Shown here piece after piece: positions 21,429-25,155 of a stretch of 64,000 nt of DNA (position 1 is the first letter of the stretch; every line of letters begins with the position of its first letter). A model generated the notes under the pieces. It did not search any database. It was given only the letters and a program-made list of their open reading frames with translations, and was not told the DNA's origin. The position numbers were made by a program, and so were the translations under genes. Source of the DNA: Candidatus Hermodarchaeota archaeon (GTDB lineage: Archaea; Asgardarchaeota; Lokiarchaeia; Sigyniarchaeales; SOKP01); contig JBHLLG010000002.1 of NCBI GenBank assembly GCA_048885925.1, positions 32,001 through 96,000 of the forward strand, in the 5' to 3' direction.

Positions 21429-21983
21429 ATGAGTGATAAAGCGTTTGGATTTAAAATAGTTGTTGTAGGAGATGCTGCTGTTGGTAAAACTTCATTAATT
21501 AAAAGATATACCACAAATACATTTCAAAAAAATTACATATCTACATTAGGTATGCAATTTTCGAGATATGAAGAATTTGTAAATGAAGAAATGGTTGAAT
21601 TATTTTTATGGGATTTGGCAGGTCAAGAATCGTTCAACACTCTACGAGATAGATTTTATAAAGGAAGTAGTGGTGCAATTATAGTTTTTTCTCTTGCTCC
21701 TGATGAAATTGAAACATATCATCATATCGATAAATGGAGAACCCATATAAAAGATGGCTGTGGGAGTATACCTATAGTATTACTTGGTAACAAAGCAGAT
21801 TTAGTTGATCAAGATGCAATAGCTACAAGCCCAAATTATGAAACTTCAGATGTTTATGTGAATAAACTTGCCCAAGATCATAATATTATGAAATATTTTA
21901 GAACAAGTGCTTTAACAGGTCAAGGTGTCAAAGAAGCGTTTCAAACATTAGTATTTAAACTATATCAAAGAGCTACCATTTGA
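21429..21983 (+). CDS. Rab-like small GTPase, tandem copy 1
   Basis: GDAAVGKTS, YISTLG, WDLAGQE, GNKADL, TSALTG. Confidence 0.92.
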   Translation: MSDKAFGFKIVVVGDAAVGKTSLIKRYTTNTFQKNYISTLGMQFSRYEEFVNEEMVELFLWDLAGQESFNTLRDRFYKGSSGAIIVFSLAPDEIETYHHIDKWRTHIKDGCGSIPIVLLGNKADLVDQDAIATSPNYETSDVYVNKLAQDHNIMKYFRTSALTGQGVKEAFQTLVFKLYQRATI

Positions 21984-22166: not shown

Positions 22167-22739
22167 ATGTGTGCCGAAGAGAAGGGCTACGGGTTCAAAA
22201 TTACAGTCATTGGAGATGGAGCGGTAGGAAAAACATCCCTAATTAAAAAATATACGCAGGGATCCTTTCGAGAAGAATATATCGCAACATTAGGCACGCA
22301 ATTTTCCAAATATGAAGAAAAAATTGATGGAGAAAAAGTTGAGTTGTTTTTATGGGATATTGCAGGACAAGATCAATTTCAAGCATTACGACAAAGGTTC
22401 TATATAGGGAGCAGTGGAGCTATCATCGTTTTTTCTCATGATCCAGCACAACTAAGATCTTATGAACATGTTCCTAAATGGCTTGATGATCTTAAAAAGC
22501 ATTGTGGAAATATACCAATAATTTTATTTGGAAATAAAATTGATTTGGTAGATGATGGAAAATTAGAATCAAATCCAAATATACCCACTTCAGATATAAA
22601 TGTTGAAACTTTTGCAAAAGAAAATAGATTTATTGGATATTATAAAACAAGTGCATTAACTGGTCAAGGAGTGACTGATGCCTTTGAAGTACTTGTTAAA
22701 AAACTATATATGATCGCTAAAATTTCAAGTTTTACTTAA
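22167..22739 (+). CDS. Rab-like small GTPase, tandem copy 2
   Basis: GDGAVGKTS, YIATLG, WDIAGQD, GNKIDL, TSALTG. Confidence 0.92.
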   Translation: MCAEEKGYGFKITVIGDGAVGKTSLIKKYTQGSFREEYIATLGTQFSKYEEKIDGEKVELFLWDIAGQDQFQALRQRFYIGSSGAIIVFSHDPAQLRSYEHVPKWLDDLKKHCGNIPIILFGNKIDLVDDGKLESNPNIPTSDINVETFAKENRFIGYYKTSALTGQGVTDAFEVLVKKLYMIAKISSFT

Positions 22740-22786: not shown

Positions 22787-25069
22787 TTACGTACGTTTAT
22801 AGATAAATCTTTCCCAACTCTTCTTACTTGGCGCTTCTAATGGCATATTTTTACGCTTGCGAATATCCATAATGATACTTTCTTCTAATTGAGGAGGAAC
22901 TTTCTCAAATCCTAAAAATTCATATCCAAAAAATGCCCGTCCCGCTGTTGAGCCCCTAATATCGTCAGCAAGTCCTATAGTTTCTGCAGCAGGAATTTGA
23001 CCTTGAATTCTTACATATTCTCCCTCAGGAATAACGTTAGTAATTCGACCTCTTCTTCTAGTTATAATACTAGAAACTGATCCTTCTGTACCCTGTGGTG
23101 ATTTCACATCTATCTTCTGTATTGGCTCAAAAAGGTGTGGATTTGCATCCAACATAGCCAAGGATACAGCAGAGAAGAACATACCAGCAATCTGCCCATA
23201 TTGCGTATGTCTGGGGTCTTCATGGATTGTCATATCAGTAAAAACGACTTTGATTCCAGCAGCAGGTTCTTTTGCTAGGATACAATTGCCAAGCCAATCC
23301 CTAAATGCAGCACTTAAATATGATCTTACACGATCAAATCTCTGTAATCCTGAGGTACCATTTACAAGAACACTTCCATGATAGAGATCAACAATTCTTC
23401 TTGCTTCTTTAGCGTCCCATCCAGCTTCTTCTCTAAGAATTTGAGCTCGATCTTTCTCATTTTGCAGATCATTCACTTTACCGGTTTCTATCAAACGTTC
23501 AGTTTTTTCATCTAAGGGTTCTATATATAATAAAACACGATTATGCGTGTTTGCTGATTTAGTATAATAATCAGGACTTTTTTGAGTAATTTTTTCCCTA
23601 TATACGATTATTGGTTCTCCAATATTAATTTGCACTTGATTATTTATACGTTTTACTAAAATTTCTATCTGTAATGGGTCGATTCCAGATAAAATAAATT
23701 CTCCTGATTCTTGATCTCTTCTATATTCTGCTGTTGGATCTGCTTTTAACCATTTACTTACAACCTCATCCAGTTTATCTATATCATGTGGATCTTTTGG
23801 TTTAATGCTTCTCGAGACAACAGCTTCACATGCATAATGGATTTTTTCAAAGGCGGGTATTCTTTTCCTTTCTTCCTTATCTTTAGGGACATCATTTGCG
23901 TTAATAAAGGTTTCTCCTGATGGAGAAATGAATCCATACAATGCAAATAAATTGCCAGCAGGAACTTTAGGAATATCTAAAATATCTGTAATTTCCATCA
24001 CTCCAAGTCTTTTCACTCGAGTTTGTGAATCACTATTAACAAGATAAAGTGTATCACTTTGATCAAAGGTACCCGAAAAAACACGACCGATAAGTGTGGC
24101 CTGATAATTTCTTTTAGGATCAAGGAAAATCTTAGTAATCATACCATAAAGAGGTCCTTTAGGGTCGCTTTTAACAAGAGCTTGACCAAGTTCCGATTTT
24201 AAGTCACCTCCCCAAATGTGGGGAATTCTATACTTTGAAGCAGTAACTGGATCTGGTAAATGATCTACAATCATTCTTAGCATAGGTTCATCTAGAGGTA
24301 GATTGTCCCTTAACCACTGAATATCACCTTCATTATATTTAGCAAAAACATCTTGGGGTTTCAAACCTTTTTCCAATAAAATCTCGTAAGTAAAACCCCA
24401 ACCATGTTTTGCTGAACCAACTGCCACAGAATTTTTCGCAAAATCAATACTCCAATCTGAGCCTTCTGGTCTAACCTTCTTGATCAGATCATTTACTTCT
24501 CTAGTGATTTTATCAATCTTAGCAAAGGTTTGTTGTGGGGTTAATTTAAGCTCACTAATAAGGCGGTCAACTTTATTAATGAAAAGAACGGGTTTGCAGT
24601 ATTCCTCACCGACAGACAATCTAATATTAGTTTCTGTTTGTGTCATAACGCCCTCAAGAGCATCCACCAATATAATAGCACCATCACTGCCTCGAAGAGC
24701 TCTTGAGACCTCTCCGGTAAAACTGATATGACCGGGGGTATCATTGAGCTGAATAATATAAGATTCATCATCTTCTGGCTTTCTAGGGTCATTAAATGCA
24801 AGAAGAACTACACTTGTGAATATAGTAATGCCCCGTTCCTGCTCCTCGTCTTTCAGTAGATCAAGTAAATCTTAATCTAAATCTGAATCTGTCATTTGGA
24901 GCTGTCCGGCATCCTCGGGTCGCATGAGACCAGCTCTGCGTAGTAAGTAATCAGTAGCTGTAGTTTTGCCATGATCAATATGAGCTGTGATTGAAAACAA
25001 CCTTTTCTTTTTATATGAACCTTCTGTAACCAATTTTGCTATAGTCTCAGGGTTCTTTACTTTAACCAT
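22787..25069 (-). CDS. fusA: Translation elongation factor 2 family protein (aEF-2 or its paralog), predicted join(25069..24881, 24850..22787), 750 aa after removal of a 30-nt intron
   Basis: Track ORFs 24872..25069 (G1 AHIDHGKTT) and 22787..24670 (G4 NKVD, domains II-V) are in one frame. Between them lie EEQERGITI and G3 DTPGH. Only a 30-nt insert containing TAA interrupts the frame. Confidence 0.93.
24851..24880 (-). other. Predicted 30-nt bulge-helix-bulge (tRNA-endonuclease-type) mRNA intron in EF-2
   Basis: Pre-mRNA UCAG-AU^U-UAGAUUAAG-AUUUA-CUUGAUCUA-CUGA-AA^G: 4-bp central helix UCAG/CUGA, 3-nt unpaired segments on opposite strands, 9-bp intron stem. Canonical cuts delete exactly 30 nt including the stop. 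Confidence 0.85.
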
Positions 25070-25134
25070 TATAAGTTCACATCGTATAAATTATAGTTAG
25101 TTATTATGTTATAATTGAAGAAAAGAATACTGGA

Positions 25135-25155
25135 AATCATAAAAGTTTTATGATT
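25135..25155. promoter_or_regulatory. 10-1-10 inverted repeat in the divergent EF-2 / histidine kinase intergenic region
   Basis: AATCATAAAA-G-TTTTATGATT, perfect arms; function inferred only. Confidence 0.4.

Follow-up and report, generated by a model that had tools for sequence, protein, structure and literature searches.

A bulge-helix-bulge (BHB) intron, of the type known from tRNA genes, was reportedly described in the cbf5 pre-mRNA of Crenarchaeota by Watanabe in 2002 and by Yoshinari in 2006. In T4 gene 60 and in the mitochondrial byps, short hairpin inserts carrying stop codons lie within open reading frames (ORFs) and need matched take-off and landing codons. The mRNAs of HAC1 and XBP1 undergo a protein-only cytoplasmic splicing at paired stem-loops, in which the ends are sealed by a tRNA ligase (RtcB in animals) and the protein depends on the splice. 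This unconventional mRNA splicing is also mentioned in the available part of PMC4090602. In this study, a 64,000-nt stretch of an Asgard archaeal genome (assembly GCA_048885925.1, contig JBHLLG010000002.1, positions 32,001 to 96,000; hereafter the window, in whose own numbering positions are given) was analyzed, in which the gene for elongation factor EF-2 is interrupted by 30 nt containing an in-frame stop codon. An earlier reading made from the letters alone (the sequence-only reading) had proposed that these 30 nt are a tRNA-type intron.

According to the available text of a 2020 paper (PMC7714728), the intron of crenarchaeal cbf5 is the sole BHB intron reported in an mRNA besides that in a Haloferax 5' untranslated region (UTR). 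The cbf5 introns have been linked to relaxed motifs and to a hetero-oligomeric splicing endonuclease, EndA, in the accessible part of PMC2738675 (Yokobori 2009). Asgard genome papers (bioRxiv 10.64898/2026.10.13.758758, PMC11291895, PMC5829648) describe very many tRNA introns, and mRNA introns go unmentioned in the portions available.

Results

The 30 nt at 24851-24880 on the minus strand are probably a BHB (tRNA-type) mini-intron in EF-2 pre-mRNA, as judged from the sequence and its relatives. This reading is supported by the geometry of the insert, its boundaries, compensatory changes, presence or absence at one site among relatives, purifying selection on the gene and the occurrence of both EndA and RtcB in the genome. 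The EF-2 family gene (22787-25069, minus strand) has 761 codons, insert and terminal stop counted, in one frame whose sole internal stop is codon 66. Exon 1 (24881-25069, codons 1-63) carries the P-loop AHIDHGKT and ends in ...TDSD, and exon 2 (22787-24850) starts with DEEQERGITI, the region of the G2/switch I threonine; both follow from the frame and from the alignment with relatives. The inserted letters were found as the sequence-only reading had quoted them, running from 24880 to 24851 with the TAA at 24874-24872. Their removal restores the family spacing, as it had also claimed: intron-less genus-mates read ...GAT|GA(C/T)GA... exactly at this point, and the difference is 30 nt. A mechanical ORF reading returns a 65-aa ORF (24872-25069) and a 627-aa ORF, the former being the stub expected from unspliced mRNA. 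With the stop read as X, the product matched TIGR00490 (aEF-2) with 613.6 bits, which is under the curated cut-off of 738.45, and contained the Pfam domains GTP_EFTU, EFG_III, EFG_IV and EFG_C. The host genome is a draft of 3.9 Mb in 181 contigs, with 29% G+C and a completeness of 95%.

The fold of the insert has the topology of the archaeal splicing motif, passing from outside to inside through the exon-exon region, the 3' bulge, a 4-bp helix between exon 1 and the 3' end of the intron, the 5' bulge and the intron hairpin. On the minus strand, UCAG near the end of exon 1 (24883-24886) pairs with CUGA in the intron (24853-24856) in 17/17 distinct sequences, and this helix is invariant among the carriers of an intron at this site. 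The 5' bulge is AUU (24880-24882), and the 3' bulge, assigned from sequence and alignment, is AAG (24850-24852). The inner stem of 9 bp is formed by UAGAUUAAG (24871-24879) and CUUGAUCUA (24857-24865), as given by the fold and the pair count; it is paired in 94.8% of the cells of the alignment, with two pairs changed on both sides, and is closed by the 5-nt loop AUUUA (24866-24870), which the alignment of carriers marks as the most variable part of the intron. A distal exon-exon helix joins GCUCC (24898-24902, codons CAG CTC) to GGAGC (24841-24845, codons GAG GAG C), and the synonymous sites of both strands are fixed only in intron-bearing genes. The minimum free energy (MFE) of the 71-nt stretch around the insert was -18.7 kcal/mol, compared with -8.1 +/- 2.2 in 200 dinucleotide shuffles, none of which was as good (z -4.78). 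The MFE structure shows the 9-bp stem, the 5-nt loop, the AUU bulge and the distal helix; it agrees with the stem, loop and 5' bulge claimed earlier, its central helix has 5 bp instead of 4, and the distal helix is an addition to the earlier description.

In the available text of PMC4090602, anticodon nucleotides 34-35 lie within the 4-bp helix and the canonical intron is at 37/38, and the cut is therefore expected after the second nucleotide of each bulge, that is, at 24881/24880 and at 24851/24850. Applied to the insert (AU^U, AA^G), this rule removes 1+9+5+9+4+2 = 30 nt, so that the boundaries derived from structure coincide with those derived from homology, as the sequence-only reading had stated. 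Calibration of the rule on the tRNA introns of the same genome was uninformative because the intron positions given by ARAGORN are imprecise.

The insert was also sought outside the assembly. In four metagenome DNA runs, each from a different study, contigs extend over 24851-24880 with 0-2 mismatches and without indel rows. Only record 31 of run X3 (24780-25045) bridges the insert with at least 31 letters on both sides; in the other three contigs, one side is limited to 20-24 letters. In none of these four runs was a joint across 24851-24880 listed. Loose ends at 24881/24885 in runs X2 and X13 proved to be intron-less sequences, and because their flanking letters differ, they come from co-occurring relatives and are not an excised form of this genome. 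Separately, one contig of run X1 (depth 18.5) omits 128 nt over the start of EF-2 (24979-25108) and probably stems from a relative with another upstream region.

An orthologue was present in 40/40 related genomes searched, and the matches within the genus were of two kinds, one of 2250 nt and free of stops, the other of 2280 nt with a single TAA. The phylum survey covered 399 genomes, 315 of them with a match at E<=1e-150; the best 150 matches were listed, and 168 lower-scoring ones lie outside any claim made here. Among the best 150 matches listed, internal stops occurred only in the family of the window genome, in 25 genomes of six genera; two more rows marked with stops contained terminal stops on inspection. 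Nineteen further EF-2 genes were retrieved after the survey. The site of the window intron (site A, TDSD|DEEQ) was occupied in 19 genomes, of which the 18 besides the window genome were separately assembled and vary in sequence. This comparison of relatives, also proposed earlier, thus gave both same-site inserts and two stem pairs with compensatory changes. On an EF-2 tree of 26 genes, built without the intron columns, the distribution of the site-A intron needs 6 changes, 5 of them forced by well-supported branches; a tree of 39 genes, covering the 3' portion only, requires 12. Because the intron sequences are plainly homologous, many precise losses of the site-A intron, or its transfer by recombination, must have occurred.

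Constraint at the RNA level was examined in 18 site-A introns with their 20-nt flanks, which align without gaps with a mean column identity of 91%, even though synonymous sites are saturated. Bases assigned to helices were paired in 96.4% of 306 cells, compared with 25-47% when the partners were slid by 1-3 columns. The 5' bulge is AUU in 16/18 and AUA in two (genomes G214 and G195), and the 3' bulge is AAG in 17/18 and AUG in one (G023). Two-sided changes of stem pairs were from G-C to A-U in four sequences and from U-A to A-U in four. In the exons, the third positions of CAG, CTC, GAG and GAG are G/C/G/G in 17/18 intron-bearing genes; intron-less genus-mates have these bases in 3, 2, 3 and 5 of 14. 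Interspersed synonymous sites that do not pair vary freely in both the intron-bearing and the intron-less sets, which argues for selection on the pairing rather than hitch-hiking. Moreover, in 11 phylogenetically independent pairs, the state of the distal helix went the same way as the intron in about 9.7 and the opposite way in about 0.5 (sign test, median p 0.012). A T precedes UCAG in 18/18 carriers and in 7/14 intron-less genes, and Ser is encoded by TCA in 18/18 and 10/14, respectively.

Four further points in the G domain of EF-2 are interrupted in 7 other genomes, in each case by 30 nt. Site A2 (MTD|SD) is occupied in G197 and G192; site B (TAH|IDHGKT, in the P-loop, EF-2 codons 32-41 in locus L018 of G016) in G016, G204 (L045) and G232 (L047); site C (DHG|KT) in G186 (L056); and site D (AHID|HGKT) in G193 (L057). 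The EF-2 gene of G016 carries both the A and the B introns, two in one gene. The introns at these four sites differ in sequence and share an identical 4/3/9/5/9/4/3 layout, with 0-1 mismatch in the 9-bp stem. The A2 intron, which lies 6 nt upstream of site A and follows a similar exon word, resembles the A intron in sequence. At each of the five EF-2 sites, the bulge rule returns the uninterrupted protein exactly. When both strands of the 3.9-Mb genome are counted, exactly this layout is found 855 times, or about 1e-4 per position, and at such a rate five inserts defined by homology cannot all share it by chance.

A geometry scan of the genome for other genes split in this way, as the earlier proposal had suggested, yielded at least six further conserved genes with inserts of 30-34 nt. 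These are an AMP/thymidine-phosphorylase-like gene (C5:45896-45925, 30 nt), CdhC (C16:1810-1839, 30 nt), CODH (C4:38336-38367, 32 nt), a CdhA-like gene (C6:5548-5581, 34 nt), a JAB/MPN gene (C15:18539-18569, 31 nt) and a 4Fe-4S protein gene (C31:18957-18988, 32 nt). The clearest case is CODH, in which the upstream ORF stops at position 457 of the Prismane profile, to be continued from 458 by a downstream ORF in another frame; the CODH frame is open for 635-648 aa in 17 relatives and for 565 aa here. In CdhC, a single Pfam match runs through the insert. Among the six, Pfam matches reach or cross the joint in the CODH, CdhC and phosphorylase cases only; for the interrupted genes other than CODH and CdhC, the motif assignments are tentative. 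Canonical outer helices of 6 bp adjoin the motif in CODH (GCUCCA/UGGAGC) and in the 4Fe-4S gene (CGCCUU/AGGGCG).

A genome-wide ORF screen found 6 ORF-restoring candidates at the rule and 4-6 when the 3' cut was moved by 1-2 nt; with at least 100 codons, there were 2 at the rule and 1-2 in the controls. Since there is no excess over the shifted-cut control, the screen gives no census, and only the cases backed by homology count. All six candidates obtained with the rule fall within conserved motifs or domains. The eight controls inspected were ends of genes, frames of low complexity or the same introns in another register. In relatives, the AMP-phosphorylase match was about 30 nt longer, with in-frame stops, in 7 of the 23 genomes of the genus that had a match, as far as match lengths indicate. 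A different state was seen at G010:C33:9237-10775, where the AMP-phosphorylase gene has one in-frame TAG and no extra 30 nt. An HdrA-like gene (C5:48479-50284, minus strand) was dropped as an intron case, as its TGA stands at a Cys position and no extra length is present. This TGA is probably a selenocysteine codon, and it falls in what we take to be the DCSxC motif of a Cys-rich region.

When paralogous copies of the introns were sought, a full-length match was obtained only with the query itself for all 7 sequences, which share 8-16 identical positions pairwise. A multi-copy mobile element resembling a miniature inverted-repeat transposable element was rejected, since no sequence-similar full-length copies were found. 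A self-splicing intron of group I or II, which would have a ribozyme core of hundreds of nucleotides, and membership in another known RNA family were likewise rejected: the insert measures 30 nt, and an Rfam search of 24600-25150 at E<=1 gave 0 matches.

The seven full-length intron-bearing EF-2 genes of the first set contain no other stop or frameshift (7/7). For their 21 pairs, the ratio of nonsynonymous to synonymous substitution (dN/dS, Nei-Gojobori) was 0.031-0.058 with a median of 0.049, at a dS of 0.97-2.45, which is saturated. Because of this ratio and the lack of any other lesion, the window EF-2 is, from its sequence, judged not to be a pseudogene; the relaxed selection and additional lesions that the earlier reading had named as signs of decay were not found. 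A second, more divergent EF-2 family paralogue with 34% identity is located at C14:44377-46500 (minus strand). By eye, this paralogue is without the conserved His-containing loop of domain IV.

With respect to splicing enzymes, RtcB was found on contig C12 (569.6 bits) and the catalytic subunit of EndA at C22:7600-8214 (101.7 bits). The closest solved relatives of this EndA are the catalytic alpha subunits of crenarchaeal heterotetramers (3p1z_B, 6e-38), and it aligns without gaps across the Crenarchaea-specific loop (CSL), with a K and an R opposite K44 and R46 of A. pernix. The CSL and Lys44 confer cleavage of relaxed, non-canonical motifs according to the available part of PMC3241643, and Asgard archaea have been reported to possess the CSL in an (alpha-beta)2 enzyme (PMC5829648, available part). 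ARAGORN called 31 tRNA genes, 19 of them with introns, which indicates that the splicing pathway is in heavy use. The total of 31 tRNA genes was small at 95% completeness, and many are probably hidden by non-canonical or multiple introns.

Downstream of EF-2 on the opposite (plus) strand lie two tandem ORFs of small Ras/Rab-like GTPases (21429-21983 and 22167-22739; 184 and 190 aa), so labelled by eye from their P-loop and DxxGQ motifs only.

Discussion

From the conserved structure, its boundaries and the enzymes present, we infer that the EF-2 transcript is cleaved and ligated. In the proposed mechanism, the last six nucleotides of exon 1 would fold with the intron into the 4-bp helix UCAG/CUGA, two 3-nt bulges on opposite strands and the 9-bp hairpin with its 5-nt loop, and the distal GCUCC/GGAGC helix would keep the two exons together. 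EndA would cleave after the second nucleotide of each bulge, and RtcB would ligate the exons. Splicing would give ...TDSD|DEEQERGITI..., with the RNA junction ...GATTCAGAT|GACGAGGAG..., and would release a 30-nt intron that is probably circular, and unspliced mRNA would yield only the 65-aa stub. That the intron couples tRNA maturation to elongation capacity, as was suggested with the first proposal, is pure speculation.

Several observations weigh against this interpretation. In the MFE structure, the central helix is a 5-bp one (UUCAG/CUGAA), of which the BHB register uses four pairs. No outer helix adjoins the 3' bulge: only one U-A pair is possible there, and the 5-bp helix is set off by 4 and 11 nt, so that the motif is of the relaxed form. 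The sequence-only reading had described the exon side as relaxed, which holds for the 3' bulge; the exon helix, however, is displaced rather than absent, since a distal 5-bp helix is present and under selection. The double changes in the stem represent few events, and the pair count was no better than shuffles (347 of 500). Some carriers have imperfect stems (two U.U mismatches in G021 and one G.A in G016), and G195 is without the distal helix. The link between the intron and its flanking codons could arise partly from co-inherited recombination tracts. Furthermore, searches with PF01974, PF02778 and tblastn revealed only one EndA homologue in this genome of 95% completeness, and no structural beta subunit, which a heterotetramer of broad specificity would be expected to contain. 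Finally, none of the runs listed for the locus is recorded as RNA, contigs of DNA runs cannot reveal transcripts, and neither a spliced junction nor an intron circle was observed; in two RNA runs from a related study, hardly any of the words of the locus occurred.

Other explanations of the insert have to be weighed against the same data. It might be removed or tolerated by a route other than EndA and RtcB, such as another nuclease and ligase or excision at the DNA level in part of the population. This would suit the facts that splicing was not observed, that the beta subunit was not found and that related intron-less forms occur in the same metagenomes (the loose ends in X2 and X13). The geometry, however, is the specific motif of EndA, whose cut rule predicts where the inserts start and end at five sites of EF-2 as well as in other genes, and the intron-less DNA has the different flanks of relatives, with no joint across the insert listed in the four runs; nothing points to another nuclease or to a DNA-level route, and such a route is considered improbable. 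About half as probable is programmed translational bypassing, in which the ribosome would hop over the 30-nt hairpin. The inserts are short, form hairpins within coding sequence and carry stops, some of their lengths are not multiples of 3 nt, and GAT codons recur near site A, all of which would be expected of such a hop. Nevertheless, matched take-off and landing codons are absent: the exon at site A ends in GAT and the insert in AAA, a hop from GAT to the next GAC would lose one Asp relative to all intron-less orthologues, at least four carriers have AAT and one has GTT before the stop, and at A2, B, C and D the inserts end in a stop or in an unrelated codon. Bypassing would also leave unexplained both the fixed 4-bp helix with its 3-nt bulges and the selected exon-exon helix.

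A slightly smaller probability is given to the possibility that the gene is non-functional or dispensable, with the second EF-2 paralogue doing the work and the insert a tolerated lesion. The existence of that paralogue and the score of the window copy under the NCBIfam aEF-2 cut-off speak for it. By contrast, the low dN/dS at saturated dS, the lack of other lesions and the retention of the insert in 19 genomes with a pattern of change that follows RNA structure all speak against it; in addition, the paralogue is the more divergent copy, lacking the loop region by eye, and intron-less relatives retain both genes. Translation of the insert by stop-codon recoding or readthrough is highly improbable. 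The stop at site A is always TAA, which speaks for it, but the other EF-2 sites carry TGA, TAG and TAA (one of each in G204), the 31-, 32- and 34-nt inserts of other genes shift the frame, and TAA ends ordinary ORFs in this genome, this EF-2 included. Moreover, the amino acids encoded by the insert are not conserved, and its changes track base pairing. The least probable account, that of an assembly or sequencing artefact, might be raised for a draft of 181 contigs; it is refuted by the contigs of four runs from four studies and by the 18 further genomes, separately assembled and with variation, that contain the insert.

Beyond the BHB intron at site A, a wider and more tentative reading may be offered. 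The family may possess a population of stereotyped 30-34-nt BHB mini-introns, preferentially situated in the most conserved catalytic motifs, which possibly include the P-loop and switch I of EF-2 (five sites), the phosphate loop of nucleoside phosphorylase, CODH/ACS, JAMM and 4Fe-4S motifs. Such introns might have been gained, shifted (A versus A2) and precisely lost many times, in which case mRNA splicing by the tRNA machinery would be routine and introns would be spreading actively by some route, for example by reverse splicing or by recombination involving spliced copies. We are rather less than evenly inclined to this wider reading.

Synthesis of a translation factor that is essential appears to depend on the enzymes of tRNA splicing, and inserts of this kind are found at several places in EF-2 and also interrupt further central genes across a family of archaea. 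If this is confirmed in RNA, essential genes that are intact are being annotated by gene callers as fragments or pseudogenes, archaeal mRNA splicing by proteins alone is no mere curiosity, and many independent gains and losses among close relatives become available for studying the origin, spread and loss of introns. The question of how such introns arise, spread and vanish bears on the debates about intron origin. In line with the sequence-only reading, which knew of no such case in EF-2, a search of full-text literature outside supplements and most subscription journals found neither EF-2 nor any Asgard mRNA reported to contain a BHB intron; what accompanies the papers on Asgard tRNA introns as supplements could bear on this. 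A BHB intron in the coding region of EF-2 appears to go beyond the crenarchaeal cbf5 precedent.

Compared with the systems described so far, the EF-2 insert resembles the bypass elements of T4 gene 60 and the byps in being a short hairpin with stops, but the matched codons of those elements are absent at the EF-2 sites. In HAC1/XBP1 splicing, the nuclease is Ire1, the motif is another one and the reaction is stress-regulated, whereas no regulation has been shown for the EF-2 intron. The BHB intron of Haloferax volcanii HVO_1309 (PMC7714728, available text) involves EndA acting on an mRNA, as is proposed for EF-2; unlike the EF-2 insert, it is situated in the untranslated leader (5' UTR) and leaves the frame uninterrupted. 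The non-canonical tRNA introns of Asgard archaea and Thermoproteales, as far as the accessible parts of bioRxiv 10.64898/2026.10.13.758758, PMC11291895 and PMC5829648 describe them, have the same motif, presumed enzymes and size range, and they too are repeatedly gained and lost in intron-rich lineages. Their hosts, however, are tRNA genes, whereas the host here is an mRNA with no tRNA body to aid recognition. The closest likeness is to the cbf5 intron, which, in the accounts available, is also a short BHB-type intron within a coding frame, often with a relaxed motif, served by a hetero-oligomeric EndA of broad specificity and gained and lost among relatives. The splicing of cbf5 has been shown experimentally in those accounts, and the EF-2 intron is known from sequence alone. 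In contrast to cbf5, the intron described here occupies another host gene in another lineage, and its stereotyped 30-nt module is found at five sites of EF-2, with similar inserts interrupting at least six more genes of the same genome.

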